A stretch of DNA of 64,000 nt from an uncultured Patescibacteria group bacterium (GCA_905478415.1 CAJQIG010000005.1:1598-65597), one strand, 5' to 3'. Counted from the stretch's first letter, positions 497 through 47,919 are shown. Numbers and translations: made by a program. Notes: generated by a model from the letters alone, not told the origin.

Positions 497-2300
497 ATAC
501 TTCATTTGTTTCGGTGCTAATGCGTGGTTGTATTGTAACCTGCTTTGGCAACTGGAGACCATCTTGATATACCGTCAGCGTATATTTACGTTGTTCGTAC
601 GGCAGAATGCTCGGTATCTTGATGGTTTTATTTTTTTGTAGAGTTACAGAAGGATCTCTTGATTCAAACTCTAAAGATATATTGTACCAGGCCTGCTCTG
701 TCTGGTTAGTAATGATGGCTGTTACGAGTCCTGGCAGTGGTATTCCAAAGACACGCTTCGGAATGAGTGCTACCGAGAGGTTAGGTGTCGCTGCTGGGAA
801 TGTTTCTGCAAACGAGATGGTAACGTCTTTTGCCGCTTCATTTCCTGTTGATTTATAGCTGCCTGCAGGATATGGAGTAGTGCTCGAGTTACCATTAATA
901 GCAAACACAATGTGGTTGAGGTCGAAGTTTGAAAAATAGTCTATACCGCCAGTAGTGTCTCCCCAAGTTGGGTCTATCGGAATCCAGAGTTCTTTTTCTT
1001 CGTTCCAGTATTCTGGCCAAGCATGCAGGATATCCCCCTCAAAACTAGAAGGTCTGAGATCATCATTTTCGGCATAGCCATAGCCAGTATTTCTTCGGGC
1101 TGGGATAGCTGCTGCTCTGGCAAGGGTAATAAAGGTATCACTAAATTCTTGACAGACTGCTTGTTCTGGATTTTCAAAGGCTTCGACTGCTCCTTGTCGT
1201 GAACTACCCTCGCTTAAATCACCAGTGCTGTAGGTGAGTGTCTTGACGACGTAATCATACATTTCTTTAGGGGTGCGATATTTTCTTACTAGATCTTGGA
1301 TAAGTGGATCTTGTACTTCCCAATAGGTATCTGCTTGCAAACTTTGTGCAGAGGGACGTAGTACAGGGACAGAAAGATTGGGTGTCAGTGTGACTAAAAT
1401 AGTAGCATTGACATAGACGTTAGTGGCCGAAGCAGGACCCAGCTTGTAGGTAGCAATCCAGTTGCCATCAGCATCAGTTTTGATATCTTCTGGAGCTGGA
1501 TCAATATCTTGGATTGAGATTTTTTGAAATGAAGTATCGGGTGGAAGAGCAATTTGAGCTAGGGTAGTTCCACTGGTCGAGTTTTCAAGCTGGTATCTTA
1601 AAGTGGCTGCATAGATTTGTTTATCTCCAAAAATTGCGGTAATGGGTTTCCCTTTCAGGTCATCGTAGCCAAGCACAAAGTAGTTATCTTTCGTATTTGT
1701 TTTGTCTGGATCGGGATCAATTCTTGGAGGATAGCCATACTGCTCTGGAACATACAGCTCAGTAGTATGTTGCGTATAGTTTGAAGCTTCGGGAAGTTCG
1801 GGAATATGAAGTTCGAGGACCTTCCCTCCAATAGTGGCCAAGTTTGTGTTCGAGTACTCAATGATGAATTTTCTAGCTTTACCTTGACCAACAACTTCAT
1901 CTGGAAAATCAATGGCGATACTAGTGCCGGAGTTATCTTTAACGATGTTAGGAATCAATACCTGGTCATCGTATCTGACGATAACATTTTGTAGATCGGG
2001 GTAGCTGGTTTTGAGTGCATATTGGGTAAGAAAAATAGTTGGTTGTTTGTTTGTGACGATAAAGTTATGAGCAACTTTAGTGACGCCAACAGCATCAACT
2101 GTGTAGGTTGATTTGAGGGTAATGTCGAAATTTTCATTTGCTTGTATTTTTGGCGGTAGTGTTACAGCTAAGCTTACAATCCAGCAGAAAAAAATGGCTC
2201 TAAGGATAGCCTTTTTGAAAGTGCTCATAGGAGTATTGTAACGCATTTGAGGTGTCTGAGTATGAAGAATTAGATACTGCCTTGAATTTTTGCAAAGCAA
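351..2300 (-). CDS. Secreted/membrane-anchored transglutaminase-like (Cys-protease-fold) domain protein. It has an N-terminal signal/TM and a C-terminal TM anchor. The true start is probably internal (Met at 2246 or 2228).
   Basis: The motif ...GAVEAFENPEQAVCQEFSDTFITLARAAAIPARRNTGYGY... resembles the transglutaminase-like core (Cys in a G..C..F motif, followed by GIPAR). The C-terminus is hydrophobic (AMAGSAVVLTLIAGSVLVL RQRR). A hydrophobic N-terminal segment follows internal Met residues. Confidence 0.55.
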   Translation of the reverse strand: MLCKNSRQYLILHTQTPQMRYNTPMSTFKKAILRAIFFCWIVSLAVTLPPKIQANENFDITLKSTYTVDAVGVTKVAHNFIVTNKQPTIFLTQYALKTSYPDLQNVIVRYDDQVLIPNIVKDNSGTSIAIDFPDEVVGQGKARKFIIEYSNTNLATIGGKVLELHIPELPEASNYTQHTTELYVPEQYGYPPRIDPDPDKTNTKDNYFVLGYDDLKGKPITAIFGDKQIYAATLRYQLENSTSGTTLAQIALPPDTSFQKISIQDIDPAPEDIKTDADGNWIATYKLGPASATNVYVNATILVTLTPNLSVPVLRPSAQSLQADTYWEVQDPLIQDLVRKYRTPKEMYDYVVKTLTYSTGDLSEGSSRQGAVEAFENPEQAVCQEFSDTFITLARAAAIPARRNTGYGYAENDDLRPSSFEGDILHAWPEYWNEEKELWIPIDPTWGDTTGGIDYFSNFDLNHIVFAINGNSSTTPYPAGSYKSTGNEAAKDVTISFAETFPAATPNLSVALIPKRVFGIPLPGLVTAIITNQTEQAWYNISLEFESRDPSVTLQKNKTIKIPSILPYEQRKYTLTVYQDGLQLPKQVTIQPRISTETNEVYEHKTLEATSGPAFISYVTDQTIIIAMAGSAVVLTLIAGSVLVLRQRR

Positions 2301-3097
2301 AAAGTCCCACTATATGAGGTGAACGTGAATGCTGTTTCGTTAATCTCAAGAATAGAGTAGATTCCAGGATTATTTTCTGAAAAATTTTCAGCTGCGATGT
2401 TTTCTGAGAATGCTGGGTTTGAAATGTAGTGTGTACCAGTTATTTCTTGGTGGGTAAGTAAATGCACATGCGCATTGAGAAATAAGTTTGCAGATGAATT
2501 TGCAAAAAGTTCTCTTATTATATGTGCATTTTTGTAGTACATGCCTTCTGGTTCATTCTCAAAATAGAAGCTGCCCTTTGAGTCAATAGGAATCAAAGAA
2601 TAGTGGGAGAGGATAATAGTTGGCTTTTCTCTTTGGAGCGCTTCCTTTAACCACTGAATTTTTTCTGTCGAAAGAAAAGCCCCATCGTTTTCATCTAGCT
2701 CGAGATCAAGCCAGAGAATGGTATGTGGTCCCAAAGTTGTTGTTCCGAAAAAAGTTGGTTCTTCTTTCAGTGTGTTTGCATAGATAGAATCAATTTCTTT
2801 CGGGGAAAATGCTTTGAGCTCATGGTTGCCTAAGAGATGAAGCGTTGGTGTAGGAATTTTCTGAAGAAGCGAGAGTGTTTTTATAAGATTTTTTGTATCA
2901 ATAGTTTTGTCATAGGTATCTCTGAGTGCGTCACCCATGTGGACAACTAGGTCGGGAGCTAGCTCTGTAAACTTTGGAATAAGCGCTGTCAGTGTAGCTT
3001 CTGCTTGGGTGTTTGCTTGGCGTACAACTTCGGCATGAGTAGTTGAATTTCTAGATGTTCCAAGGTGGATATCACTGATGATGAGAATCTTTTGCAT
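2270..3097 (-). CDS. Calcineurin-like metallophosphoesterase
   Basis: The N-terminus MQKILIISDIHLG and the motifs ...GDALRD... and GNHE are metallophosphoesterase signature motifs I-III. The gene lies between uvrA and the transglutaminase-like gene. Confidence 0.7.
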   Translation of the reverse strand: MQKILIISDIHLGTSRNSTTHAEVVRQANTQAEATLTALIPKFTELAPDLVVHMGDALRDTYDKTIDTKNLIKTLSLLQKIPTPTLHLLGNHELKAFSPKEIDSIYANTLKEEPTFFGTTTLGPHTILWLDLELDENDGAFLSTEKIQWLKEALQREKPTIILSHYSLIPIDSKGSFYFENEPEGMYYKNAHIIRELFANSSANLFLNAHVHLLTHQEITGTHYISNPAFSENIAAENFSENNPGIYSILEINETAFTFTSYSGTFCFAKIQGSI

Positions 3098-3121
3098 ATA
3101 CAGAAAGTATACCAGATCAAA

Positions 3122-6091
3122 TTACTTCATGGCCTCAAACTCGGTTTTGAGGTATTCTCCAGTTGCAGAGTTGGGATTATCAGCAATATTTCGTGGAGTG
3201 CCGGTAGCCACAATTTCTCCACCGTAAATGCCCCCTTCTGGACCTAAATCAATAACCCAATCCGCATTTTTAATGACATCTAAATTATGTTCGATAGTAA
3301 TGACCGTATTGTTTTGTTCGACCAGTTGATCAAGCACCTCGAGCAGTTTTTGAACATCTTCAAAGTGGAGTCCCGTGGTCGGTTCATCGAGTAAGTAGAC
3401 GACATGCTCATGTGTTTTTGTAGAAAGTTCTTTGGCAAGTTTGACTCTTTGCGCTTCTCCTCCACTTAGGGTTGGAGCTGGTTGTCCAAGCTCAATATAT
3501 CCCAGACCGACAGCCTGTAGGGTTTTGACTTTTTTCCGGATGGTTCCATGGTTGATAAAGAAGTCGACAGCCTCGTCAACGCTCATGTGGAGGACATCAC
3601 TTATTGATTTATCTTTGTATTTTATTTCGAGTGTATCTTCGTTATAGCGAGCACCATGACAGACATCACAGGTGACATAGACATCAGGTAAAAATTGCAT
3701 TTCAATTTTAAGTTGTCCATCTCCTTGGCAGGCTTCGCAACGACCACCTTTCACATTGAAACTAAAGCGACCTGGTCCAAAGCCACGCATTTGGGCGTCT
3801 TTGGTGTTGGCAAAAACTTTTCGAACATAGTCAAAGATCTTAGTGTAAGTAGCTGGATTTGATCGTGGAGTTTTGCCAATTGGACTCTGATCAATCATGG
3901 TGACACGTTTGACGATGTCGGGTACAGTAATTGAGGTAATTGGTCCTGGAGCGCCATCAGTCATTTTACCGAGGTGCTTACGGAGGTGTTGATAGAGAGT
4001 GTCGTGCAGCAACGTTGATTTACCAGACCCAGAAATTCCTGAAATACAGACAAATTTGCCCAAGGGGAATTCGGCATCAACATTTCTCAGATTGTGTTGG
4101 TTAGCACCGGTAATTCTAATAGATCTGCCTTGGGAACCTGGAATGGCATCGTCAGAAACAATTTTTCGTTCAGATTTCTTTCCGTAGAGACTCTTTCGCA
4201 GGACATCTTTTTTACGAGAAAGATATTTAGCTGTTAGAGACTTTTTATTTTTGAGAAGTTCTTCTGGAGTGCCTTCAGCTACAATTTCACCACCGAGTTT
4301 GCCCGCCAGTGGTCCAAAGTCGAAGACATAATCTGCGGCTAGCATGATATCGCGATCATGTTCGACCACAATAACGGTATTTCCCTTTTTCTGTAAGTTC
4401 TGAAGTGTTTTGATGAGGCGATGGTTGTCTCGTTGGTGGAGGCCAATTGTCGGTTCGTCGAGAATGTATAAGACTCCAGTCAAGCCAGTGCCAATTTGTG
4501 ACGCTAAGCGGATCCGTTGGGCTTCACCACCAGCGAGCGTTGCAGCTTCGCGGTTCAGACTTAAGTAGTTCAGGCCGACTGATTTTAAGAAGTGTAATCG
4601 GGCGCTGATTTCTTTAATAATTGACTCACCGATAAAGCGTTCTTTTTCGTTGAGAATTTCCTTTTCTCTGAGAGTATTGACCCAAGCTAGACACTCATCG
4701 ATAGGTAAGGTAGTGATTTCGGCGATAGTTTTACCATCAATATGGACACTCAGAGCTTCTTCTTTCAGTCGAGTTCCTTTACAAGTTGCACAGGTTTGTT
4801 TGAGCATGTAGGCCTGAATTTCTTTTCGAATGTAGTCACTGTCTGTTTCGTGATATCGGCGCTCTAGATTAGTGATGAAGCCTTCAAATTGTTCGTGAAT
4901 GACTGTTTGTCGGCCAAAGCGGTTTTCTCCTTCGACTTTATAAACCTTGTCACTGCCGTGTAGGAGCGTTTTTTGAAATTTTGGTGAAAATTCTTCCCAG
5001 GGGGTTTTTCTAAAATCAAACCCAGCTTCTTCGACTACCGTGGTAACTAGTCGTGCCCACCAAGTATCATTACTGAGCATTCGAGCAAACGGAATGATGG
5101 CTCCTTCACTCAGTGTCAGACTTTGAGCAACAATGGTTGATTCGTCAATTTTAAGGAGTGTTCCCAAACCGTTACAATCTGGACAAGCACCATGAGGTGA
5201 GTTAAATGAAAAAAGCCGAGGTTCAAGTTCTGGAATCGAAATACCACAGTCACTACACGCTCGTTTTTCGCTAAAGAGTCGATCTCTGAATTCAGTGGGT
5301 TTATCTGGAAACGAAAGAGATGCATCATCAACCAGTGAGAACATAACTAAACCATCAGCAAGTTGGAGTGATTCTTCTACTGCAACTGCAATTCGATGTC
5401 GAAGTTTTTTCCGTTCTGCGTCATCTTTCAGTTGTTTAGAGCTAATGACTCCCCGTTCGATGACAACTTCGATAGAGTGTTTATTATTCTTAAGGAGATT
5501 TAATTCTTCTTCAAGATCATACATGCGTCCATCAATTCGAACTCGGCGATATCCTTTTTGCTGTAAGGTGTCAAACAGCCCAGAAAACTCACCTTTTTTA
5601 TCTCGAACTACAGGTGAAAAGACCATAAATCGAGTTGGTTGACCATTTTTTTCGAAATCAAAGATATCCATGATGTGAGACACAATTTGGTCTGTACTTT
5701 GAGTGGCAACCTCGAGTCCACAGTTTGGACAGTGTGGGTGCCCTACTCTGGCGTAAAGGAGACGTAAATAATCATATATTTCTGTGATGGTTCCTACGGT
5801 CGAACGAGGGTTATGTGAAGTAGTCTTTTGGTCAATAGAAATCGCAGGAGAAAGTCCATCAATTTGATCAACTTCTGGTTTTTGCATGACTCCTAGAAAT
5901 TGACGAGCATAGGAGCTCAGACTTTCAACGTACCGGCGTTGCCCTTCTGCATACAGTGTGTCAAAGGCAAGTGAACTCTTACCACTGCCAGAAAGCCCTG
6001 TAAAGACAACCAACTTATTTTTTGGAATAGTCAGGGATATGTTTTTGAGGTTATGCTCTTTGGCACCAGTAACGGTAATGTTTTGTTCCAT
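3122..6091 (-). CDS. uvrA: Excinuclease ABC subunit A (UvrA). The ORF-track start at 6205 is probably too far upstream. The Met at 6091 aligns with canonical UvrA N-termini.
   Basis: [67 protein letters not shown] is near-identical in pattern to the E. coli UvrA N-terminus. There are two ABC ATPase modules and zinc-finger Cys clusters (CPNCG, CSDCG, CEAC..C). Length is ~990 aa. Confidence 0.93.
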
Positions 6092-26871: not shown

Positions 26872-26954
26872 AGTTGATGAGGTTTATTTTACCAGATTAG
26901 TGGTAGTGCTCTTTTTAGTACAAAACCGTCAACAAGTGTCGACGGTTTATTTTG

Positions 26955-27026
26955 AGCGGGAGACGGGGTTCGAACCCGCGACCTCTTCCTTGGCAAGGAA
27001 GCGCTCTACCACTGAGCTACTCCCGC
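26955..27026 (-). tRNA. tRNA-Gly (anticodon GCC)
   Basis: The reverse complement reads GCGGGAGTAGCTCAGTGGTAGAGCGCTTCCTTGCCAAGGAAGAGGTCGCGGGTTCGAACCCCGTCTCCCGCT. The anticodon loop is TTGCCAA. Confidence 0.88.
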
Positions 27027-27293
27027 AGATGTTGATCTAACATTCAGAATTATACAACCTGATGCTGATCTTGTGAATAAGTGTCTGAGGTCGTATAGTA
27101 CACATATGAACAGAAATCCCCTCACATCACCAGAAATGAACCGACAAATGGGCAAAGCTACCGATAATGGGCTTAAGTTTTTCTTCAAGTGGTTTGGGAT
27201 TGCAGTTACAGAACTTGTTAAGTTTATTAAAGTGTTGGTTTCTTCAGCAATGGGAAAATAATTTTTTTCAAAAATTTTTCAAATAAAGATGTG

Positions 27294-27366
27294 TGCCAAG
27301 TTCAGGAATCGAACCTGAATCTCATGTTTTTCAGACATGCGCCGTAACCACCTTGGCTAACTTGGC
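27294..27366 (-). tRNA. tRNA-Phe (anticodon GAA)
   Basis: The reverse complement reads GCCAAGTTAGCCAAGGTGGTTACGGCGCATGTCTGAAAAACATGAGATTCAGGTTCGATTCCTGAACTTGGCA. The anticodon loop is CTGAAAA. Confidence 0.85.
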
Positions 27367-27399
27367 ATCTTTGTATCAAGAAAAGATACTTTTTTTCTG

Positions 27400-27472
27400 T
27401 GGAATGTAAGGGACTCGAACCCCTGACCCTTCGGATGTAAGCCGAATGCTCTACCAACTGAGCTAACATTCC
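27400..27472 (-). tRNA. tRNA-Val (anticodon TAC)
   Basis: The reverse complement reads GGAATGTTAGCTCAGTTGGTAGAGCATTCGGCTTACATCCGAAGGGTCAGGGGTTCGAGTCCCTTACATTCCA. The anticodon loop is CTTACAT. Confidence 0.88.
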
Positions 27473-27479
27473 ATTTTTG

Positions 27480-27560
27480 TGCCCAGGAGAGGAGTTGAAC
27501 CTCCACACCTTGCGGCATACGCACCTCAAGCGTACGTGTATACCATTTCACCACCTGGGC
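27480..27560 (-). tRNA. tRNA-Leu (anticodon GAG), long variable arm
   Basis: The reverse complement reads GCCCAGGTGGTGAAATGGTATACACGTACGCTTGAGGTGCGTATGCCGCAAGGTGTGGAGGTTCAACTCCTCTCCTGGGCA. The anticodon loop is TTGAGGT. Confidence 0.8.
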
Positions 27561-27662
27561 ACTTTTAAAAGAGCATGTAGTGTGTGAAATCACAGACTAC
27601 AAGGCTTGTATTATAAAATACTTTCACCTTTTTCGGAAGTACGGCTTCTGCCGATTTTCAGG

Positions 27663-27750
27663 TGGTGCCAGAGATGGGAGTCGAACCCATACGCCCGTAA
27701 TTGAGCACTAGTTCCTGAAACTAGCCTGTCTACCATTTCAGCACTCTGGC
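27663..27750 (-). tRNA. tRNA-Leu (anticodon CAG), long variable arm, CCA encoded
   Basis: The reverse complement reads GCCAGAGTGCTGAAATGGTAGACAGGCTAGTTTCAGGAACTAGTGCTCAATTACGGGCGTATGGGTTCGACTCCCATCTCTGGCACCA. The anticodon loop is TTCAGGA. Confidence 0.8.
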
Positions 27751-28620: not shown

Positions 28621-28693
28621 GCGCCAGTAGCTCAGCGGATAGAGCACCGGTCTTCGGAACCGGGTGTCGGGGGTTCGAATCCCTCCTGGCGCA
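28621..28693 (+). tRNA. tRNA-Arg (anticodon TCG)
   Basis: GCGCCAGTAGCTCAGCGGATAGAGCACCGGTCTTCGGAACCGGGTGTCGGGGGTTCGAATCCCTCCTGGCGCA. The anticodon loop is CTTCGGA. Confidence 0.88.
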
Positions 28694-28835
28694 CACATAA
28701 AGGACCAGCAATAGCTGGTTCTTGATGTGTTTGTTCGGTGATGATTTGAACTGTCGCGCCGGGCAAACGAGCACATTGTGCGAGTCACCCTAGTGCATGT
28801 GAGCCTCATCTAGTAGAAACAGATTGCGAATCGTA

Positions 28836-38092: not shown

Positions 38093-38208
38093 TGATGCAT
38101 CTTGAGCATAGTTACTGCCAGGAGGGTTGTGAGGTTCTATTAGAATAATTTACCTTTTATCCAGTTGGTTGGCCAAGACTGCTCGCTCGCGTTGCTCACT
38201 GTGTGATG

Positions 38209-38381
38209 CTAGCCATTGAGGGTGGGGAAAGAATCGAACTTTCCTCTCAACCATTCCACTCACAGGGAAGCATTCTGCCGCTGAACTAAAGGTGATAATA
38301 CTTTGCTCACCTTCTGGGTATCGAACCCAGGTCTCTTCCGTGGTGGGTCAAGTGGGACTCGAACCCACGACACCCTGCTTA
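38209..38381. repeat. attL: the left copy of the 173-bp direct repeat. It contains a 3' fragment of tRNA-Lys (anticodon loop to CCA, ~38341..38381) plus ~130 bp of tRNA-flanking sequence that includes tRNA-like T-arm motifs.
   Basis: Matches 47711..47883 except for 2 substitutions. These form a compensatory pair in the tRNA T-stem (CTGGG/CCCAG versus GTGGG/CCCAC). Confidence 0.8.
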
Positions 38382-38581
38382 GGTAGCACGACTTAGATGT
38401 TAATACTTGTCTATTAAAAAATATTATACAGGGACAGTTTTATTTTGTCACTGAATTGTACTTAATAAATCTTGAATGCAAGGGATTTAGTGCTCCCCGT
38501 AATGGATTCGATACGAACTGCAATACTCGAGGCAGGCACTAATAAGTGGCTATACACTGAAGAATTTTTAACTAGTCCAGT

Positions 38582-39895
38582 TTAAAAAACACCTCTTTCA
38601 TTTAGTCTTTCAACTGAAATACCCTTTTGTAGGTCTTTAAACCCAAAGCTCCAATGTATGTCACGTGTTTTTTCAGCTACATATTCTTTCAAATCCGATT
38701 CATTCGATAGTGTCATTGTGTCTATAGCAATATCCCACGACCTTTGAGCAAAAACAGAAGTTCGAGGTTCTGGCCACATTGTTCTAATGGCAGGGTCTAT
38801 ATAAACATTTTCCATACCATTAATTTCCATAGTGCCTAAAATACTACCGCTAAATCCAAGTTTTTCATACATTTTACCTGCACCACTCAAGGTAACATAT
38901 AGTTGTGCAGCAAACCAAGAAAGGTAAATCGTTGGAGCACCACCCTCACCTGTTTTAAGAACATTTGTTGATGTGGACATCAAACCATTTGCGAAAACTT
39001 GTTGAGAATCTATTCCTCCATCTCTTCTTTTCCAACTTAGATGAATCATTCCTTCACTAATTGAGTCCCAATGAGTTGCCCTCGATGGAAAAGATGCAAA
39101 TCTAGTTCTAAATTCGGATTCCTGAATGAGCGTTTCAATATCTAAAGGTCTAATAAGCTCAGTCTGAGGAAAAAAAGGCTGTAAAGTTATATCTAACATT
39201 GCTACATTAATACCTAAATTGTGTTGAAATATTTGTGACTTGAATGGTGGCAAAGTATCCCCGTCTTCAAGGTGGATTTTCTTTGCTTCATAGTTTTGCT
39301 TTTCAACCTCAATTTCGTTCTTTCTTTCTCTATCTGCACTCTTTAGAAAGCTTTTATAGTTTAACTCAGCTCGGTTCTTATTATTATTTCTAGAAATCTG
39401 AGCCTTTTCACGCTTGCCAAACAGAAGTTCAATGTGCTCTGGCGATGCGATGTTCACAGACTTCTTTGTGCTTCCAGTTCTAATCCAAATATTACTGTCA
39501 TTATGAGCATAGTAAGGTGTTTCATTTCCTTCATATATTCTTAAGAGAAGAAATACTTTACCATTGTTGTCATTTGTCTTGTGAACCCCAAAACTTGGAA
39601 TAGGGGATATGTTGCCAATAACTTGAGCAATGTACTCATCGTGCCTTCCATCATCAATACCCTCCCATTTTGTTGGTTCACCTGTTTTTCTGTTTTCTCT
39701 AATACCTACAACAATTACGCCACCGCGAGTATTTGCGAACGCACAAACCAGCTTTGCTAGTTTCATCTTATCTGGAAGCTCCTCCTTGTAATCCAATTGC
39801 ATGCCTTCTGAATTTTTTTCTTCGGCAAAACTAACAACATCATCAAAAGAAAATTCACTCAATTTTTTAGTCAATATCTCCATTTTAGTCTCCAA
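38582..39895 (-). CDS. AlbA_2 / Schlafen-like (divergent AAA-associated DNA/RNA-binding) domain protein with an unknown ~230-aa C-terminal domain
   Basis: N-terminal ...LDYKEELPDKMKLAKLVCAFANTRGGVIVVGIRENRKTGEPTKWEGIDD... matches the AlbA_2 core (E.lEFK..l......l.k.vcAFANt.GG.l.iGv.d.g...Gi). Confidence 0.6.
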   Translation of the reverse strand: METKMEILTKKLSEFSFDDVVSFAEEKNSEGMQLDYKEELPDKMKLAKLVCAFANTRGGVIVVGIRENRKTGEPTKWEGIDDGRHDEYIAQVIGNISPIPSFGVHKTNDNNGKVFLLLRIYEGNETPYYAHNDSNIWIRTGSTKKSVNIASPEHIELLFGKREKAQISRNNNKNRAELNYKSFLKSADRERKNEIEVEKQNYEAKKIHLEDGDTLPPFKSQIFQHNLGINVAMLDITLQPFFPQTELIRPLDIETLIQESEFRTRFASFPSRATHWDSISEGMIHLSWKRRDGGIDSQQVFANGLMSTSTNVLKTGEGGAPTIYLSWFAAQLYVTLSGAGKMYEKLGFSGSILGTMEINGMENVYIDPAIRTMWPEPRTSVFAQRSWDIAIDTMTLSNESDLKEYVAEKTRDIHWSFGFKDLQKGISVERLNERGVF

Positions 39896-40122
39896 TCCTT
39901 TTCAACTCATCTAAATATCTGTTAACTAACTCAGCCATTTTTTTCTGTATCCTAACCTACTAAGTCACCAGCTAAGTCATGAGTAAATTCAAATAAATCA
40001 ATGAAATTCTCGTTACTGCCAATGTTCATTGTAGCATCACTAGAATACGAGTTCATACCTTTAGGGTTAGGTAGCACGACTTAGATGTTAATACTTGTCT
40101 ATGGCTATATTATAGCGCGCTC

Positions 40123-40812
40123 TTAATTTTTTTTACGCAAAATGATTGTTTTTGTTTTATTTGAAGAAGTGTTACTTTTTAGATTATCGGAGTTTATTGA
40201 ACTATCATAGAAATTGCAACTGTCCAAATTACTAGTGTTTAATGTCTCAGCAAATTTGCTATTTGGAAAAAATTCAGTACAAAGCATTGCTAATCCATTT
40301 TTTTTATTAGCAAATGTTTGATAAACTTGATTATTTTCGCAGATGTTTTCAAGAGTATTTTTTATATAAGTATTAAGGTGATACTTCCAAACAACACCCT
40401 GACAAAAGGAATTTCCCAAACCCTCAAACACATCTATTACTAAACGAACTTGCAATTCATTTTGAACATATTGGTCATTTTTTAATGACTCAACTATGAG
40501 GAGATTTTCTTTATCTTGATACAAGTCAGAATAAGCTTCGGCAGTTTGCTCTTGGCTTAATTTAGCTTTTTGAAAGAGTTGGTTTTCTTCTTGAATTTTA
40601 ACTGACTTATCAGCTTTTTCACCAGCTTCTATTGCAATAATATTCGATTCTTTTGAAATGATATTTGATTCTTTAGCAATAGATTGAGATGCAATTAGGG
40701 AAATAATAGACACGATAAGAGCACATATGCTTATCGTTGTTGACTTGTTTTTTTTGAGGTACACAACTAGCTTATTTAAGCTGAGGTTTCCCTGCTTCTT
40801 CGAGTTTGGCAT
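40123..40812 (-). CDS. Hypothetical membrane-anchored, low-complexity (Asn/Ser/Lys-rich) protein
   Basis: A 229-aa ORF with an N-terminal TM. It overlaps the upstream DUF4145 gene by 41 bp, so it appears to be in an operon with the AlbA_2 and DUF4145 genes. Confidence 0.35.
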   Translation of the reverse strand: MPNSKKQGNLSLNKLVVYLKKNKSTTISICALIVSIISLIASQSIAKESNIISKESNIIAIEAGEKADKSVKIQEENQLFQKAKLSQEQTAEAYSDLYQDKENLLIVESLKNDQYVQNELQVRLVIDVFEGLGNSFCQGVVWKYHLNTYIKNTLENICENNQVYQTFANKKNGLAMLCTEFFPNSKFAETLNTSNLDSCNFYDSSINSDNLKSNTSSNKTKTIILRKKN

Positions 40813-41455
40813 TTAATTTTTTTCTTTTGGCTTCTAAAATAGCAGGTTGAACAAAGTAATAATCAAAAAGACTCTCAATCACATCGAGATTCCATTCTGC
40901 TTCACCTTCCTCCACGTCCACAATCCCACCAGTGTTTTTACTTTTGATTGGATGTGCTGCAAAGTTCCCAACCACACGAATAGCATCAATGCCTTGTGAT
41001 ATTGATGATGGTAGGCCTCCATTGTCTAATACTTGTTGAATTTCACTATCAAGGCTTCCTGCTTTAACATTGATTGTTTCAATTTTACCTGTTTCGCTAT
41101 GTAACACCTTGAGCTTTGCTTTTTCTCTAAGTATGTGTTGCAAACATCTTCTGCTTAAAGCTGCACTAGCCTTGGGACTATCCTGAAGGACGTTTGCTGC
41201 TTCTAAATATTCATGCGTGTATTCACTTGGGATTTCTTTTGAAATGGGACTTCTGGCTATGTTTTTAGGATACACTACTATATTGGAACTTCCTCCGCCA
41301 TCTTTTGGTATTTTTCTAAATCTTATTATTGCTTTACCACATTCAGGACAAATCATTGAACTTATATACCAGTGTGCATCAATATCTGAAATAGAGTTGC
41401 GAGATAGTTCAGAAAATGATTCGTGTATAGATGTTTTACAATGTGGACATATCAT
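40772..41455 (-). CDS. Zinc-ribbon + DUF4145 domain protein
   Basis: N-terminal CPHC...(x27)...CPEC is a four-Cys zinc ribbon. C-terminal ...AALSRRCLQHILRE...IDAIRVVGNFAAHPIKSKNTGGIVDVEEGEAEWNLDVIESLFDYYFVQP matches the DUF4145 pattern (R..lE..l......ld.iR..GN.aaH......i..eea...l..le.ll...f). Confidence 0.6.
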   Translation of the reverse strand: MICPHCKTSIHESFSELSRNSISDIDAHWYISSMICPECGKAIIRFRKIPKDGGGSSNIVVYPKNIARSPISKEIPSEYTHEYLEAANVLQDSPKASAALSRRCLQHILREKAKLKVLHSETGKIETINVKAGSLDSEIQQVLDNGGLPSSISQGIDAIRVVGNFAAHPIKSKNTGGIVDVEEGEAEWNLDVIESLFDYYFVQPAILEAKRKKLNAKLEEAGKPQLK

Positions 41456-42326
41456 GTTTATATTATACCAAAGTATTCCGAAAAGGTTTTACCTCGATAT
41501 AACAAAAATATTTTATTGCATAGTAAACAATACCCTATTATTATTCCCCTGCCATAAGTACTGGATAATTAACCTAGAGTAGCTATACATGATTAGTATC
41601 CAGTGGACTTAGCCTAGTCTGACTTTCTAGGTCGAATTAACACTGGGTTGTAGACTGGTGTTATTTATGGGCTCCCGCAGGACAATAATGACCCCCGTGC
41701 AAGTTCACTTATAGTCAAAACCATAAGCTATCAATCACGCTCAGCGCAGTCTCTAAGGTACAACAGACCTCTTCAATATATTTTTAATATTTCCGTCACC
41801 ACTATTTCCAGGGCCTAGTGGCAAGCCCTCGTATCCATTCTCGCGGTTAATTTAAAGACACCCGCTACTGCTAGAATAAAGCTCACCTGTGTCTGTGGTG
41901 GTAATAAAAAAACCACCAAAATAGGTTTCTCATGTTTTTCCTACTTGGTGGTTTCAAATGAAACACACTATATGTTTTTTCTCGCTGTAATAAAAAAATC
42001 CACTTAGACGTAGTTAGTATTGTGTATGCTGTGAGGCTACTAACCACGTCCAAATGGACTTTTCATACACATAACTATACCTACCCTCTATATTGTCCCA
42101 ATAAAGACCGTTTGTCAATAGATAAAAGCTTGATAAATCAGACAAAATAGACAATGATGAGCAAGTAGATAACTATGTAGTATTATAGGGCCTCACACCA
42201 ATGTTTATCTTGCTTTAGGTTTTGAGCTACTGGTAACACCCACACCCCCCTCTGTGAGAAAGGGGCCCTTTAACCCGAGTTGGACTACTAGTAGAAGGTA
42301 TTATAAGGATATTTTTTTTCCTTTTT

Positions 42327-44408
42327 TTACCACTCTTTTGGAGGATTTTCAAAAAGGTCTATTAATTCCAAAGCTCTTTTGCCAATATTTTTACCTTTTG
42401 AGCTCTTATAAATCATAATTCTCTTTTCAATTTCTTTAATTGGGTATAACTCGCCTAATGACTTAAGACCTAATGTTTCGTATGAACCTTTATTTGAAGA
42501 GTGAACCATACCTGTAAAACCATCTAATAATTTAATTAACCCTACATCATCTTGAACTAATTTTCGAATGTAATTCTTGACGCTCTTTTCATTTCCCCAC
42601 TTCAACCACCTGAATAATATTACATCTAGGCGAGTTTCATCTTCGAGTTTCCCATTCTTTACTTTCTTTTTTATTAATTTTAAAACCTCTTTTCTGAATT
42701 TTTCTACAAATTTTTTGTCAACTAATATATCTTTATCATTTTTTTCTATTTGCTCACCAAAGACATCAAGGAGTCTAAGAGAAAAATGAATATTTTGAGT
42801 TTCATTCATAGTGTTAAGAATAAAATCAGCACGTTTATCTTTTGAAACAATATTCTTTAGGGCCTGGTATGTCAAGCGACCCACTTGAGTGTTAAAGTCA
42901 TTTAACCCAAACAATCCACTCTGAGTATCTGAGACATGTCCATCAATATTCCATAAATTCACTATTATTTTTTGGATTTGTTCTTGGGTAATTTTTTCAA
43001 TTCTGTCTAATAACAAATCAATAGTCTTAGTCAGTTTCTTTTCTTTATCTAGTAATAAAAACTTTTCTTTCAAAGAATCTTCATTTGTTTTTGTAGAAAG
43101 AACTGCTTGCACCTCAACTTCTGAAACCTCATCTTCAGGCACACTTAGCTGAAAATAAAAATCGAATTTTTGCTCTGAACAAATTCTCTTTTGTAGACGC
43201 CATTCTCTTTCATAACTTGAACCACTCGATGAATCCATCTTCAACTGAGGAAAAAGTTCTCTTGTTATTCCATCTATTGACGACATAAATTCTTTAGGAA
43301 CGATTTTTTCATTATCTAAAATTTCTTTATAAATTTTTTGACGTTCTTCATCTCTTTCTCTTGAAGGAAAACTAAGTAATGAATCATCTTTATTCAAAAA
43401 AACATACTTGTTACCAGCAATAACATTATAATATGTTGGGACAAAAATTCTTAAAGCTTCTACCGCAATAAAATCCACTGGATTAACATCTTCCTTGTTA
43501 ACTACAGACCAATTTAGTTGAAGAGAACTCAAAAAACGATTAATATCTCTAATGGTAACAAACAAATTACTAAAACCATTTCTAAATATGGCTTCCCAAT
43601 GCTTCTGTTCTTCACTGTCAAAAACATATGTACCGTAAATAGAATCTAGTGTTTTATCTAATCCAGAAAACAAAACACCTCTTAGGTTCTGTTTATCTGG
43701 AACTGGGATTGTAAATGATACCTGAATAATTTTTTTAAGATAGTCATGTCCTTCAATTCCACGTTCTGTTATCCTACTCGCTACTTTTTCTCTATCATAT
43801 GCAAGTAAAAAAACCGTGTTTGGGAAGTTTGCTGTCATTTTAACCATCTTTAATATCAGTAATGTCTCCTGTTTATCTAGGCGGTCAATATCATCAATTA
43901 CTACCAAAATTTTCTTTCTCCGCCTTTTTAAAAGAACATCAATCGATTCTCTTATTTCAGTTAAAGTTTGAACACCACCATATTTTTTAATTTTTCCTGG
44001 TGAAAACTCAAAAAACCAAAGAAATTTTACAGAAGGATTAAACTCAAACATGGACTGTTTAAGTAGTTTTGAAGAATAATTTGTAAGTTTCTGCTTCAAT
44101 TCGTCTTTTTCACCATTTTTATCTAATGCAGCAGTAAATGAGTCAAAAAAATCGGAAATTAGTTGATTTTGACTAGAAAAATTCCAAGGATTGAACTTAA
44201 TAATAACGACATCTTTTCTTTTAAAATTTTCAAGAATTAAATTTATAAATGACGTTTTTCCTGCACCCCATATACCTTCAATACCAATAACATAGCTTTC
44301 TTTGCCTTTATAATTCTTAATTAGCTGTGCTACCTTTTCAGCTAATGGCGCCCTTTTTAAAACGTCTTCTTTACCTTTTTTTTGTATTGGTGAATCAGTT
44401 GATATCAT
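42327..44408 (-). CDS. KAP-family P-loop NTPase
   Basis: N-terminal Walker A GIEGIWGAGKTSFINLIL, followed by a long helical region with VVIDDIDRLDKQE (Walker B-like DD). This is typical KAP NTPase architecture and length (693 aa). Confidence 0.7.
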   Translation of the reverse strand: MISTDSPIQKKGKEDVLKRAPLAEKVAQLIKNYKGKESYVIGIEGIWGAGKTSFINLILENFKRKDVVIIKFNPWNFSSQNQLISDFFDSFTAALDKNGEKDELKQKLTNYSSKLLKQSMFEFNPSVKFLWFFEFSPGKIKKYGGVQTLTEIRESIDVLLKRRRKKILVVIDDIDRLDKQETLLILKMVKMTANFPNTVFLLAYDREKVASRITERGIEGHDYLKKIIQVSFTIPVPDKQNLRGVLFSGLDKTLDSIYGTYVFDSEEQKHWEAIFRNGFSNLFVTIRDINRFLSSLQLNWSVVNKEDVNPVDFIAVEALRIFVPTYYNVIAGNKYVFLNKDDSLLSFPSRERDEERQKIYKEILDNEKIVPKEFMSSIDGITRELFPQLKMDSSSGSSYEREWRLQKRICSEQKFDFYFQLSVPEDEVSEVEVQAVLSTKTNEDSLKEKFLLLDKEKKLTKTIDLLLDRIEKITQEQIQKIIVNLWNIDGHVSDTQSGLFGLNDFNTQVGRLTYQALKNIVSKDKRADFILNTMNETQNIHFSLRLLDVFGEQIEKNDKDILVDKKFVEKFRKEVLKLIKKKVKNGKLEDETRLDVILFRWLKWGNEKSVKNYIRKLVQDDVGLIKLLDGFTGMVHSSNKGSYETLGLKSLGELYPIKEIEKRIMIYKSSKGKNIGKRALELIDLFENPPKEW

Positions 44409-44485
44409 ATTGATATACTATCACAAAACTTTTTCAAATTTTTACTTTCTTAGTATTAACATGACCTGTTGTATAATAAAGAAAA

Positions 44486-44606
44486 CTCGCGGCTATTATT
44501 ACACCTTTTTTAGGTGAGTTTTTACTTGTCGTTAATGATAGGCAGCCCTATCTGTCAAACGACAAGTCGTAGCCGCGAGGAAGTCTAGGATGGGCTGCCT
44601 TTTTTT
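44486..44606 (+). promoter_or_regulatory. Candidate cis-regulatory leader RNA. It has nested perfect inverted repeats (10-bp, 10-bp, 6-bp and 4-bp stems) plus an alternative 8-bp pairing and a U7 tract. A putative -10 (TATAAT 44472..44477) lies upstream. The downstream gene starts at 44629.
   Basis: P1 is CTCGCGGCTA (44486..95) pairing with TAGCCGCGAG (44570..79). P2 is CACC-ttttttta-GGTG. P3 is ACTTGTCGTT (44524..33) pairing with AACGACAAGT (44558..67). The inner hairpin is GATAGG-cagc-CCTATC. GGCAGCCC (44541..48) is complementary to GGGCTGCC (44592..99), which is followed directly by TTTTTTT. Confidence 0.45.
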
Positions 44607-44628
44607 GAAAAGCCCAAGGAAGGAACTC

Positions 44629-45303
44629 ATGATTCAACTCGGGCTATTTTTTTTAGGAATTTTTGTATACACATTTGGTCTTAATCTTTTTGCACAATAC
44701 CGCAGAGGACAAATGCAATTTGGTGGCGTACTTGGAATTTTTGCCGCCTGTTGGGCTTTGTTCACTAACATTTATTTGTTCCTGGTAATGATTCCTTTAT
44801 TCTTCATTTTCCGCAAACTTGCTAGTTATTTAGTCTTCCTCTTTTTCAAGAAACAATATCCCAAAGCAGTGAACCTTGATTGGAAAACATTTCAGTTACG
44901 AGAAACATACAGAGAAAATAAAAAACCTGAAAACTTACTAGACGGCAAATGTCTTGAGGGCATGGTGAGTAAAATGGAAGCAAAAAATAAAGAGCTGGAA
45001 GAATTTTGTGACAACGCATACAAGGTCACAGGTATTAAAGAAACTTTGCAAAAACATGATGAAAAGAAGGAGAGTCTGAAAAGTATCTATAGTCAGGTTC
45101 TAACTAGTTATGGAGGAATTTTTACCGCGAAAGCAATAATTACTGCTCCTTACTACCTCAACAAATATCTTGAAACAATCAATAAACCTGGTCATTTCTT
45201 AAAACCAAATACTGAAATCAAAATGTTTGGTGATATTGACCCTAAAGAGAAACAGTTTCTGGGAAGTCTCAATGAGTCATTTGGATTCCCTGACTTAATA
45301 TAA
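44629..45303 (+). CDS. Hypothetical membrane protein. The start at 44629 (RBS AAGGAAGG 44616..44623) is preferred over the ORF-track start at 44590.
   Basis: Two N-terminal TM helices, then a soluble Lys/Glu-rich domain. There is a good Shine-Dalgarno sequence 5 bp upstream of the Met at 44629. Confidence 0.4.
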   Translation: MIQLGLFFLGIFVYTFGLNLFAQYRRGQMQFGGVLGIFAACWALFTNIYLFLVMIPLFFIFRKLASYLVFLFFKKQYPKAVNLDWKTFQLRETYRENKKPENLLDGKCLEGMVSKMEAKNKELEEFCDNAYKVTGIKETLQKHDEKKESLKSIYSQVLTSYGGIFTAKAIITAPYYLNKYLETINKPGHFLKPNTEIKMFGDIDPKEKQFLGSLNESFGFPDLI

Positions 45304-45320
45304 CAACCAAGAAAGGAAGC

Positions 45321-45647
45321 ATGAGCAAGAATTACTTAGCGCTTAGCACTGTTGCAACAGTGTCATTAGTAGGAATCCTAGCTATACTTTTCTACACAAC
45401 CTTCGTGGTTAGACCTAGAGAACAAGCACTACAAAAGCATATTGCAGTTATGCAGGCTTGCAATCAGCAACGTCTATACATGACTTGGGAGCTAAAAAAC
45501 TCACTAAATGATGTGAGCGAGTTTGCTCCTCAAGAAGAAAAAGACCTTATAAACCAGACATTGGATAATGCTACAGGATATTTTCATAGCTCTGATTTTT
45601 TTGATACATGTTTCGAAAAAACTATAGAGGAATGGAATTTAAATTAA
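45321..45647 (+). CDS. Small hypothetical membrane-anchored protein
   Basis: A 108-aa ORF with one N-terminal TM. Confidence 0.35.
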   Translation: MSKNYLALSTVATVSLVGILAILFYTTFVVRPREQALQKHIAVMQACNQQRLYMTWELKNSLNDVSEFAPQEEKDLINQTLDNATGYFHSSDFFDTCFEKTIEEWNLN

Positions 45648-46006
45648 TTTGTTTCAATTGGCTTACTTTTTAGTATGTAGGCTTCATGAACTTTAAAACC
45701 ATTAACTTTCTCATTTTGAAGGTGGAATCCTTCTTTGTATTTTAAAAATAGTTCAGTTATGTGGTCTTGGACAGGGAATATTCCAATTCTTGCAATAGAT
45801 TTATTTTCTTCTTCACTTAGATTTTCTCTCATTTTAGAGGCGACAAGGTTAAAGATTTCTGTTCTATTTTCGTCAGTAATCCAGTCAGCAGAAACTAATA
45901 CTGACCACTTATCTATGAAATCATCCATTCTCATTATGGCAAAAAGAGTAAAGTTGCCTTTTTGAGCTTCAATTTCGTTAGTAATTAATTTAAATTTTTC
46001 TACCAT
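45644..46006 (-). CDS. Hypothetical protein. Its start overlaps the stop of the upstream HEPN gene.
   Basis: A 120-aa ORF. It overlaps the 46000..46458 gene by 7 bp (operon). No minimal-nucleotidyltransferase motif is seen. Confidence 0.35.
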   Translation of the reverse strand: MVEKFKLITNEIEAQKGNFTLFAIMRMDDFIDKWSVLVSADWITDENRTEIFNLVASKMRENLSEEENKSIARIGIFPVQDHITELFLKYKEGFHLQNEKVNGFKVHEAYILKSKPIETN

Positions 46007-46458
46007 CTTTTCTTTAAGTATACAAGAATCCCATTTGAATTATTAGTAAGAGCATTGTAAACAGATTTAACTTTTGATTCAGTCCAGTAATTTGGTTGAT
46101 ATCGCATATTTACCCATTGCTGGTTTCCTGGCAGAACATAATCTTGCGTGGCAGCAGACCATGATGCAAAATAGGGATTATTTCCTACATTTGTGAACTT
46201 GTTCGATAATCCGGATAATATTTGAAGTTTGTCTAGTTCATGAGTTCTGAAAATGGTTCGTATGTTGTTATCAACGCTGCTATCATCAGCTGGGTAACTT
46301 ACCAGGTCAAGTTTCTTACAAACGCAAGCCTTAAGGGCACATTCCAACACAAAGCCCATTGTGTAGCCTGCATAATCATAATCCCCTGCTTCAATTAAAA
46401 TTTTTGCAGCCTTTATTCTCGCTCGTGTTATCTTTTTTAGTTCGGTGCGTGTTGCCAT
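46000..46458 (-). CDS. HEPN-domain protein (putative RNase/abortive-infection-type)
   Basis: The N-terminal helix pair ARIKAAKILIEAGDYDYAGYTMGFVLECALKACVCKKL is typical of HEPN. A candidate R-x(4-6)-H motif is present in RTIFRTHELDKL. Confidence 0.45.
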   Translation of the reverse strand: MATRTELKKITRARIKAAKILIEAGDYDYAGYTMGFVLECALKACVCKKLDLVSYPADDSSVDNNIRTIFRTHELDKLQILSGLSNKFTNVGNNPYFASWSAATQDYVLPGNQQWVNMRYQPNYWTESKVKSVYNALTNNSNGILVYLKKRW

Positions 46459-46479
46459 TACAATATTACGATTTTATCA

Positions 46480-47559
46480 TTATTTTGATATGTTTTGATG
46501 TTCAAATGCTTGTTTGTCACTAACCATAATTTCAATGATTAATTTCCCTTTTTTTCTACATTCTTTTATTGTAAAACGCTTATCATTTTTTATCCCTGAT
46601 TCATCTAGTCTTCGTTGCTCCAGGTCAAGGCGAGTTTCTGAACTTTCATCTTTCAACCACAAAGGGTCGTACATACGCTGTACGTCACTTTTGCCCTTTG
46701 TTGAAAATTGTCGGTAAATGTTTAGAGTAACATTGATACCTTTGTGACCCATTACTTCTTTGACGTCTATCGGTTTTGCCCCAGCATCAATCATTGCTGT
46801 AGTTTTAATATGCCTAAAACGGTGCAAGGTAATTCTTTTCTTGATACCATGTTCTTTTAAAGATTCTCTCCAGGATTTTGCAACACCTTCTGGGTTTGCA
46901 GGGAAAACCTTTTCCCAGTTTGTCCTATTTTTGAGAGTATCGATATATTTGGGAGGTATTATCATTATTTCCCTCCTTCTCCCCTTTCTTAGAACCTCAA
47001 AATAAGGTTCAGGCACATCGAAGTGAAGGTCATCACCTGTGACATGTGTAAGCTCCTCTTTTCTTGCACCGGTTAGAAGTAGCATGATGAGATACAGTCT
47101 TCGCTCATTCTTTCTTTCTCTGACTAGTTTATTATCCGTTGGTTTTATTTCATTACTTTTATTCGCTAGGCTAAGCGCTAATTCAGGTGAAATCATGTCC
47201 TTTTTCCTATTATCAACAATGACGAAAGGGACCTGCCTGGAAAAGTTATGGCTAATGTGTTGGTACAAAAAGAGCCAGTTAATGAAAGAGCGAATCATTC
47301 GTATTTCAGTGTTCAGAGATGAAGGCTTCCATGGTTTTTTTAGATTATCATTCTTGTGACAACCATACCTTCTCAGCTTTTCGAGGTAAGCTATGATGTT
47401 TTTGGTTATCAAGGATTGATTCCCAAATTCTCGGGTAAATCTGTGAAAGAATTCACGTTTCTTTTTTTGTGTCTTGGGAGACTCATTTTTTCGCAGAGGA
47501 ACATCGATGCAGTACTCCTTTAGGAGTGTGTGGAGTTTTTTCCCTTGGATTGCTACCAT
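46480..47559 (-). CDS. Tyrosine recombinase / phage-type integrase
   Basis: C-terminal catalytic motifs: ...LLLTGARKEEL (Arg), ...ITLHRFRHIKTTAMIDAGAKPIDVKEVMGHKGINVTLNIYRQ (H-x-x-R ... H ... Y). It is adjacent to tRNA-Lys. Confidence 0.85.
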   Translation of the reverse strand: MVAIQGKKLHTLLKEYCIDVPLRKNESPKTQKKKREFFHRFTREFGNQSLITKNIIAYLEKLRRYGCHKNDNLKKPWKPSSLNTEIRMIRSFINWLFLYQHISHNFSRQVPFVIVDNRKKDMISPELALSLANKSNEIKPTDNKLVRERKNERRLYLIMLLLTGARKEELTHVTGDDLHFDVPEPYFEVLRKGRRREIMIIPPKYIDTLKNRTNWEKVFPANPEGVAKSWRESLKEHGIKKRITLHRFRHIKTTAMIDAGAKPIDVKEVMGHKGINVTLNIYRQFSTKGKSDVQRMYDPLWLKDESSETRLDLEQRRLDESGIKNDKRFTIKECRKKGKLIIEIMVSDKQAFEHQNISK

Positions 47560-47710
47560 AACAGAATTTACCTAGATGTGTATCTAAGTACTTTCTGTTG
47601 TTTCTTTTCCAAGGCGGGACGCTATGGGTAATGGACCCCGATATTGCGTTATCCCCATAAAGGGAGGCGATGCCAAACAACTTAATGCTAATCTGGACTA
47701 GCTCATGAGG

Positions 47711-47883
47711 CTAGCCATTGAGGGTGGGGAAAGAATCGAACTTTCCTCTCAACCATTCCACTCACAGGGAAGCATTCTGCCGCTGAACTAAAGGTGATAA
47801 TACTTTGCTCACCTTCTGGGTATCGAACCCAGGTCTCTTCCGTGGTGGGTCAACTGGGACTCGAACCCAGGACACCCTGCTTA
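47711..47883. repeat. attR: the right copy of the 173-bp direct repeat. It overlaps the 3' portion of the intact tRNA-Lys.
   Basis: See attL. Confidence 0.8.
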
Positions 47884-47919
47884 AGAGGCAGGTGCTCTAA
47901 CCGACTGAGCTATTGACCC
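47843..47919 (-). tRNA. tRNA-Lys (anticodon CTT), CCA encoded. It is the integration target of the island.
   Basis: The reverse complement reads GGGTCAATAGCTCAGTCGGTTAGAGCACCTGCCTCTTAAGCAGGGTGTCCTGGGTTCGAGTCCCAGTTGACCCACCA. The anticodon loop is CTCTTAA. Confidence 0.88.

Follow-up and report, generated by a model that had tools for sequence, protein, structure and literature searches.

A tRNA-Lys island in a Patescibacteria genome probably stacks independent single-gene defences, with RAZR and Schlafen homologues at its cargo end

Patescibacteria, or candidate phyla radiation (CPR) bacteria, have tiny genomes, and their phage defences have been little studied. We analyzed 64,000 nucleotides (nt) of DNA from an uncultured member of this group (GCA_905478415.1, CAJQIG010000005.1:1598-65597), referred to as the window herein, and all coordinates are positions in it. 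Three open reading frames (ORFs), all on the minus strand between 38582 and 41455, raise the question of whether they encode one three-protein defence machine or separate systems that lie side by side. A preliminary description of the sequence favored a novel three-gene module composed of a zinc-ribbon/DUF4145 protein, a membrane protein, and an AlbA_2 (Schlafen-like) protein. We instead found that genes 1 and 3 match published single-gene systems, RAZR (PMC13017515) and the prokaryotic Schlafens (pSlfn; PMC13056530), respectively, and we consider it likely that the trio comprises independent systems. The best explanation for the region is that it forms the cargo end of a 9.5-kb tRNA-Lys(CTT) island in a Patescibacteria (CPR) genome, which stacks single-gene abortive-infection systems. 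The three genes and their domains, with lengths and residues in amino acids (aa), are as follows.

40772..41455, minus strand: gene 1, RAZR/PD-T7-4 homologue, 227 aa (PADLOC, Pfam, PDB 9y9c, alignment)
about 41339-41449, minus strand: Cys4 zinc ribbon of the RAZR homologue (C3, C6, C36, C39)
about 40916-41203, minus strand: DUF4145/HEPN domain of the RAZR homologue (Pfam aa 85-180; R160-x7-H168)
40123..40812, minus strand: gene 2, ORF2, orphan membrane protein of 229 aa with a K-rich N-terminus, a transmembrane helix, an all-alpha domain, and an N/S/K low-complexity tail
38582..39883, minus strand: gene 3, pSlfn, 433 aa (Pfam, family profile, alignment, AlphaFold2 (AF2))
39455-39808, minus strand: Slfn/AlbA_2 nuclease domain of pSlfn (aa 26-143; E26-x4-D31-x-K33)
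38585-39241, minus strand: C-terminal alpha+beta domain of pSlfn, presumed sensor (aa ~215-433, behind a helical linker)

Judged from its sequence, gene 1 is a homologue of RAZR (PD-T7-4) in which the architecture of the published single-gene defence is complete. The protein matched the PADLOC profile PDLC04109 PD-T7-4 at 1.8e-21 (aa 3-169 on profile positions 16-155 of 211), and Pfam returned DUF4145 at 1e-11 plus weak zinc-ribbon matches. Its sole significant PDB match was 9y9c ('DUF4145 domain-containing protein', 24 chains; E 2.6e-7), the RAZR cryo-EM entry of the paper that renames PD-T7-4 as RAZR, for ring-activated zinc-finger RNase (Nature 2026, PMC13017515). In the 9y9c alignment, the window motif IRVVGNFAAHP pairs with ICRIVGNQAVHP and the R...H motif is aligned. 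The zinc-ribbon motifs are CPHC (aa 3-6) and CPEC (aa 36-39), and a 30-sequence alignment showed C3, C6, C36, C39, R160, and H168 to be invariant. This family is large, yielding more than 6130 matches, with ~50 % identity or above among the matches listed.

RAZR has been described as a single protein with an N-terminal Cys4 zinc finger and a C-terminal DUF4145 domain, a divergent HEPN RNase with catalytic R146/H154 (PMC13017515). It is activated by 24-mer assembly around ring-shaped phage proteins (Gp77, portal), whereupon it cuts single-stranded RNA and blocks translation in an abortive-infection manner, and E. coli is protected by RAZR alone, expressed from its own promoter (PMC13017515). 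Within the protein, the zinc ribbon contacts the phage trigger and DUF4145 is the HEPN RNase effector (PMC13017515). DUF4145 has been known as a HEPN family since 2013 (PMC3710099), and we therefore read the domain as an effector and not as the accessory or sensor domain of the preliminary description. The window and E. coli proteins share a length class (227 vs 219 aa), the order of N-terminal Cys4 zinc ribbon, linker, and C-terminal DUF4145/HEPN, the R-x7-H spacing (R160/H168 vs R146/H154), and a gene that apparently stands alone, on mobile elements and prophages. They differ in that the window protein is a distant CPR homologue with significant pairwise alignment only across the HEPN core, and that its gene overlaps a downstream membrane-protein gene, whereas other RAZR loci have no such gene. 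Neither CPR phages nor their portals have been characterised, so that a portal-type trigger of the window protein is presumed by analogy.

By the profile and catalytic motif of its nuclease domain, gene 3 is a prokaryotic Schlafen. Bacterial Schlafens are defined by their Slfn nuclease and its catalytic Ex4(E/D)xK motif, and 97 % are fused to another domain that is thought to be a phage sensor (PMC13056530). The window protein matched Pfam SLFN_AlbA_2 (PF04326) at 2.3e-19 over aa 26-143 (profile positions 1-117 of 118), which, together with the Pfam matches of gene 1, upheld the domain calls made earlier. Its motif reads E26-GMQL-D31-Y-K33, and across its relatives the first position is E in 61/61, the second D in 56 and E in 5 of 61, and the third K in 61/61; the motif was also invariant in another alignment. 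When the family profile was compared with PDB, we found human SLFN14 (1.4e-7), Slfn8 (5.5e-4), and the CRISPR-associated Schlafen CbCash (3e-3). There are ~30 full-length relatives with 33-58 % identity, mostly from CPR metagenome-assembled genomes (MAGs). Searches of PADLOC and NCBIfam gave no match for the protein, and a scan of viral contigs found no member of its family.

The preliminary description had considered the ~230-aa C-terminal domain of this protein as a possible effector. No Pfam family matched the domain. Searching 1.84 billion representatives with phmmer for the last 230 aa, we obtained 117 clusters; nearly all are proteins of 405-445 aa in which the domain spans residues ~200-420. 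Among 74 proteins sampled, all of the long ones (61/61) carry AlbA_2 and no other Pfam domain; the C-domain occurs almost only within this ~420-aa AlbA_2 architecture. Mean pairwise identity among the relatives is 50 % in the nuclease domain vs 25 % in the C-domain, and such twofold faster divergence fits a sensor since the authors of the pSlfn5 work describe that pattern for effector vs sensor. By analogy with the published pSlfn, the likely effector is the AlbA_2 nuclease and the likely sensor the C-terminal domain, which inverts the earlier proposal. The structural comparison suggested for this domain (HHpred/AlphaFold/DALI), which we ran as AF2 and Foldseek, delivered in part: AF2 gave a confident alpha+beta fold with a beta-alpha-beta4-alpha unit (pLDDT 89, pTM 0.85), but the top matches in PDB and BFVD, to TBP and RnlA TBP-like domains, were weak (E 0.008-0.04, TM-score ~0.2). 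The modelled fold is possibly TBP-like, and we do not claim class membership.

A published survey lists 55 pSlfn architectures, of which TBP-like fusions make up 1.5 % and many are unannotated; two pSlfn protect E. coli, one of them via trigger-dependent tRNA cleavage (Nat Microbiol 2026, PMC13056530). Independently, an Enterococcus lactis Schlafen and a KAP NTPase were validated as defences (PLoS Biol 2026, PMC13552941). Like pSlfn1-55, including RorSlfn5 and EcoSlfn7, and like the E. lactis Schlafen, the window protein joins an N-terminal Slfn/AlbA_2 domain with Ex4(E/D)xK to a variable C-domain on one polypeptide, with a conserved nuclease, a divergent C-domain, and a location in a defence island or mobile element. 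The likeness to the TBP-like fusion class of the survey is tentative, the TBP-likeness of the window C-domain being weak. Unlike the assayed systems, its C-domain is not Ig-like, DUF262, or histidine-kinase, and its family is concentrated in Patescibacteria and known here from sequence. RnlA/LsoA (RNase LS, anti-T4) are alike in parts, combining TBP-like domain(s) with an RNase set loose in the course of phage infection; however, RnlA has a HEPN nuclease where the window protein has Slfn, the opposite domain order, and a requirement for the antitoxin RnlB. The structural similarity is weak, and we regard the likeness of RnlA and pSlfn as analogy, not membership. Genes 1 and 3 each hold a complete single-gene architecture, in place of the domains split across polypeptides that were first described.

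If the three proteins formed one machine, their families might be expected to travel together, and the preliminary description took a lack of conserved linkage as evidence against its module. We surveyed 23 loci of the pSlfn family (tblastn, +-8 kb), 62 RAZR loci (+-4 to 6 kb; the two closest relatives plus 60 loci from viral contigs), and the four loci of the ORF2 family, which represent three independent contexts. No RAZR or ORF2 homologue lay near the pSlfn family (0/23), no ORF2 or pSlfn homologue near RAZR (0/62), and no RAZR or pSlfn homologue near the ORF2 family (0/4), so that no conserved linkage was found. The two closest RAZR relatives (58-61 % identity) adjoin integrase or recombinase genes and lack both ORF2 and pSlfn; the 60 viral-contig loci usually have no same-strand ORF downstream, and no neighbour is conserved across the 62. 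The ORF2-family loci have no other gene in common, and their neighbourhoods are variable and of conflict type, with MazG-like, SLFN-g3 helicase, CTD10, and MC6 genes.

The surroundings of pSlfn homologues also vary. Serine recombinases (Resolvase; 8/148 ORFs) are their commonest neighbours, LexA/S24 repressors also ranking among the most frequent, and we further observed restriction-modification methylases, GmrSD, DUF2726, AbiEii-like ATPases, and defence reverse transcriptases, with one locus carrying PLD, Shedu-like, and PD-(D/E)XK genes. No PifA homologue stood next to a pSlfn homologue in the neighbourhoods examined. These neighbourhoods are mobile and defence contexts without a fixed partner.

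Two recurrent neighbours of this Schlafen clade were seen on the side. In three unrelated genomes, the Schlafen homologue is preceded, at a distance of 3 to ~290 nt, by a conserved 77-aa DUF2188 gene with 55-73 % identity from locus to locus, at the following positions of the respective loci.

L007, 7728-7961: DUF2188 gene, upstream of the Schlafen homologue
L020, 7446-7679: DUF2188 gene, upstream of the Schlafen homologue
L023, 5542-5775: DUF2188 gene, upstream of the Schlafen homologue

The DUF2188 protein may on occasion partner or regulate members of the clade; the window lacks the gene, and no DUF2188 remnant was found in its spacer. Separately, three CPR loci (L032, L035, and L037; 5717-7972 / 1958-4213) have a 751-aa ORF ~29 nt upstream of the Schlafen homologue.

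Within the window, the junctions between the genes bear on the same question. The ORF listing returned co-directional minus-strand ORFs at 40772-41455 (227 aa), 40123-40812 (229 aa), and 38582-39895, in agreement with the preliminary description as to direction and the overlap of the first two, which measures 41 nt and is the sole overlap within the trio. For pSlfn, we replaced the TTG start at 39895 (437 aa) with the ATG at 39883 (433 aa) because gene calls in the public collection use this ATG and the alignments of all homologues begin at its Met; an exact look-up of the 437-aa TTG-start form in that collection returned no record, and the 433-aa ATG form is recorded. The junction between ORF2 and pSlfn is therefore a 239-nt gap and not the tight spacing previously attributed to all junctions. 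Conserved homologues of each show that all three ORFs are real genes, and the nearest named relatives of the window genes come from Patescibacteria/CPR MAGs. By an exact-sequence look-up, the window belongs to a metagenomic scaffold of 192 kb. The signals that we read around the genes are listed below.

within 41453..41472, minus strand: extended -10-like box TGgTATAAT with its end about 6 nt ahead of the RAZR start codon, ATG (read from sequence)
40067..40102, no strand assigned: copy 2 of a 36-nt perfect direct repeat (D2), in the ORF2-pSlfn spacer, with a TATAAT box ahead (within 40094-40120)
38379..38414, no strand assigned: copy 1 of D2, just downstream of pSlfn at the right end of the island, abutting its attachment site attR
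41456..42326, minus strand: 871-nt non-coding spacer from a PifA-like gene to RAZR; a U-run follows each of its two long hairpins

The box ahead of RAZR suggests a promoter of its own for the gene, with an mRNA that would be nearly leaderless, and no promoter-like box is evident ahead of ORF2. The two D2 copies bracket the pSlfn gene exactly, and a TATAAT precedes each; the match ahead of copy 1, GTGACA-17-TATAAT (38451->38423), is the best sigma-70-like one of the whole region. On these signals, separate transcripts for RAZR(+ORF2) and for pSlfn would be the most economical reading. At the att arm of the island, D2 may be the mark of a terminal cargo gene that was accreted or exchanged, and a metagenome search for D2 with other cargo returned the same strain only. 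As a side observation, D2 resembles a degenerate 5' half of tRNA-Lys. In the spacer upstream of RAZR, the hairpins (~27 bp at 41987-42064, and a second at 41900-41954) are probably terminators that part the PifA-like and RAZR transcription units; the RNA fold of 41560-42300 has z = -3.9 vs 20 shuffles, and the spacer showed no Rfam family and no ORF >56 aa.

A single novel sensor/membrane/effector module, as first described, would account for three co-directional genes that share one island, with no terminator detectable between them, and for an island that is gained or lost whole. Yet no two of the families co-occur in any other locus examined, the 239-nt gap holds a TATAAT box, the 36-nt repeat sets gene 3 apart, and genes 1 and 3 each possess the complete sensor and nuclease architecture of a published single-gene system. 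We find this model extremely improbable.

ORF2 bears on whether any pair within the trio belongs together. The preliminary description had called the middle protein membrane-anchored and Asn/Ser/Lys-rich, and indeed we found one strong transmembrane segment at aa 27-45 (mean Kyte-Doolittle 2.2) and a composition of N 11.8 %, S 10.9 %, and K 10.9 %. Only four homologues exist in a 5.8-billion-cluster collection; they share the transmembrane helix and a domain with four invariant Cys and the motifs FCQGxVW..H.NT, KNGLAMLC, and C.F.DSS. Given the K-rich N-terminus and the conserved Cys, the sequence suggests an N-in/C-out (type-II) membrane protein with a disulfide-bonded outer domain. AF2 modelled the core (aa ~75-200) as all-alpha with pLDDT >90, and the structure comparison proposed for this 229-aa protein gave no match below E = 1 when the core was compared with PDB. 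Pfam, PADLOC, and NCBIfam returned no match for ORF2, a scan of viral contigs found none of its family, and Pfam searches of the N-terminal extensions of its homologues and of their neighbour genes gave nothing informative. Most likely, ORF2 is independent cargo, for example with a surface or exclusion function, and is probably co-transcribed with RAZR here merely through its landing position.

Several points weigh against independent systems. Significant alignment of gene 1 to 9y9c is limited to aa 74-170, and identity to E. coli RAZR is low. No terminator was called between ORF2 and pSlfn, where the spacer fold has z = +0.5, so one read-through transcript is possible. For this organism, the reading draws on sequence, models, and analogy. 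Lastly, RAZR and ORF2 overlap by 41 nt, a type of junction that translationally coupled partners show, and the two genes may be viewed as a lineage-specific two-gene system, in which ORF2 acts as a membrane co-effector, anchor, or antitoxin-like regulator and pSlfn is separate. Such a pair would fit the shared strand, a promoter-like box that lies directly ahead of RAZR with none evident ahead of ORF2, the variable conflict-type neighbourhoods of ORF2 homologues, and the fusion of DUF4145 to transmembrane segments in other families (PMC3710099). However, ORF2 homologues are missing from all 62 RAZR loci, the closest relatives included, and most of these loci lack a same-strand downstream ORF; the ORF2-family loci in turn lack RAZR and any common gene. 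E. coli RAZR, moreover, works alone (PMC13017515), and an alternative ORF2 start that we read from the sequence, GTG at 40764, would abolish the overlap. We therefore judge the two-gene system unlikely and favor RAZR as a stand-alone defence.

Two further points of this kind concern gene 3. In one locus (L007), the pSlfn homologue has housekeeping genes on its flanks, namely Mur ligases, an ABC transporter, and RecQ, and 30.4 % of surveyed pSlfn genes are away from known defence genes (PMC13056530). Both would suit an AlbA_2 protein that is a non-immune nucleic-acid-binding regulator, or a housekeeping RNA-processing enzyme, hitch-hiking on the island, as would the lack of a PADLOC match. TBP-like folds commonly bind nucleic acids, which also speaks for such a role. 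On the other side, the catalytic triad is kept in 61/61 relatives while the C-domain evolves fast, an arms-race pattern; the family has a patchy phyletic distribution and sits on mobile elements, with Resolvase as its commonest neighbour family and an integrative island in the window; and defence genes adjoin it in several loci. The missing PADLOC match carries less weight since PADLOC v2 (2023) is older than the pSlfn papers. A non-immune role thus appears very unlikely to us, and we retain gene 3 as a separate Schlafen defence.

That the locus is defence-related, as the preliminary description held, agrees with the integrase at tRNA-Lys, the empty site in a sister strain, and the PifA-like KAP NTPase described below. 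The island spans 9.5 kb of the window (38204-47890), with att repeats 9502 nt apart.

38204..38388, no strand assigned: attR, a 185-nt direct repeat, copy of the tRNA-Lys 3' part plus 137 nt of downstream sequence
47706..47919, minus strand: attL, the intact tRNA-Lys(CTT) (47843-47919) overlapping the 185-nt repeat (47706-47890)
46480..47559, minus strand: tyrosine integrase, 359 aa, by the intact tRNA (Pfam Phage_integrase 5.7e-13; NCBIfam Xer/integron-integrase-like)

The two repeat copies (38204-38388 and 47706-47890) are 97 % identical. The tRNA-Lys(CTT) was called by ARAGORN and scored 74 bits with the Rfam tRNA model, and Rfam returned only tRNA over 35-49 kb. GC content is 0.31-0.37 in the island vs ~0.41 in the flanks. 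Using the flanking kinase gene, we recovered a sister-strain contig (L108) from another sample of the same series (ENA ERZ23498646). It matches 49371->47706 and 38381->35437 at 99.9 %, and these matches overlap in a single repeat copy. Since flanks and tRNA-Lys are contiguous through this one copy, the contig represents the empty site, from which the island is precisely absent. The att copies further differ by a compensatory T-stem pair, G..C in attR (38352, 38368) and C..G in attL (47854, 47870), and the empty site carries the attL allele. This implies that the crossover lies 3' of the T-arm and that the island brings its own tRNA-Lys-like 3' segment.

Another contig, L003 (9593 nt = island), was considered as an excised circle and rejected, its 91-nt exact terminal overlap being attributed to the assembly graph. 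The overlap says nothing on excision because the contig ends lie in a 144-nt identical att stretch, as a k = 127 graph would give. Downstream of tRNA-Lys, we also noted pseudo-tRNA fragments on the minus strand (47706-47842, and the copy at 38204-38340), arranged as a T-arm and acceptor 3' strand (AAGGTGA), then the complementary 5' strand (TCACCTT), a D-arm, a GTG-anticodon-like arm, and a second T-arm. ARAGORN and Rfam made no call for these fragments, which past integration events may have left as scars. About 10 kb upstream of the right flank of the island, at 26954-27750 and 28621-28694, there is a cluster of six tRNA genes (Gly, Phe, Val, Leu, Leu, Arg).

Between the trio and the integrase, the island carries the following genes.

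42327..44408, minus strand: PifA-like KAP-family P-loop NTPase, 693 aa (PADLOC PifA 1.8e-88, full length; Pfam KAP_NTPase 2.7e-49)
44590-45303 and 45321-45647, plus strand: two unannotated ORFs, beside the 152-aa/120-aa pair
45644-46006, minus strand: 120-aa ORF with a 7-nt overlap with the 152-aa HEPN-like ORF
46000-46458, minus strand: HEPN-like ORF, 152 aa (weak: Pfam 9e-4, PADLOC PDC-M28A 2e-4)

PifA, the KAP-family NTPase of the F plasmid, mediates T7 exclusion as a single-gene abortive-infection protein. Its window homologue matches the profile over the full length, has weaker QatA-like matches as well, and would be a further single-gene defence candidate, in keeping with an island that is a stack of such genes. 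It differs from the trio in lying outside the three ORFs, beyond the 871-nt spacer with its terminator-like hairpins. The 152-aa and 120-aa ORFs beside the integrase may be a toxin-antitoxin-like pair.

Beyond membership by sequence and architecture, the steps by which these proteins may act are drawn from work in E. coli, Raoultella, and Enterococcus. By analogy, the zinc ribbon of RAZR would bind a ring-forming phage structural protein such as portal, and RAZR would oligomerise around this ring, switching on the HEPN (DUF4145) site at R160/H168. Active RAZR would then cut single-stranded RNA, including tRNA, and translation would stop. Similarly, pSlfn would be kept in check until an infection cue is sensed by its C-terminal domain; in view of the weak TBP-like fold, this cue could be a nucleic acid or a phage protein. 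The released nuclease (E26/D31/K33) would cleave tRNA, the effector being most likely a tRNase. In this scheme, RAZR and pSlfn would be abortive-infection RNases layered with the PifA-like NTPase. Bolder variants can be framed: ORF2 as a RAZR-modifying membrane partner in CPR (a two-component RAZR), the pSlfn C-domain as a new TBP-like nucleic-acid-sensing trigger, unlike the protein-sensing Ig-like domain of RorSlfn5, or the 36-nt repeat as a site for cassette exchange of defence genes. Jointly, we give these variants a slim chance and prefer independent systems.

The locus is an ordinary defence island, whose members belong to known families in an under-sampled phylum, with little new in kind. 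It nonetheless cautions scans for new systems that adjacent co-directional defence genes on islands are often independent systems and not one operon. With its att sites and empty site, it is also a clean natural example of such an island. For the Schlafens, it delimits a CPR-centred clade (about 117 clusters at 50 % identity), and the C-terminal domain of this clade is a candidate sensor. For Patescibacteria, it offers one genome with a compact mobile island that appears to stack at least three single-gene abortive-infection systems: a PifA-like NTPase, RAZR, and a Schlafen.

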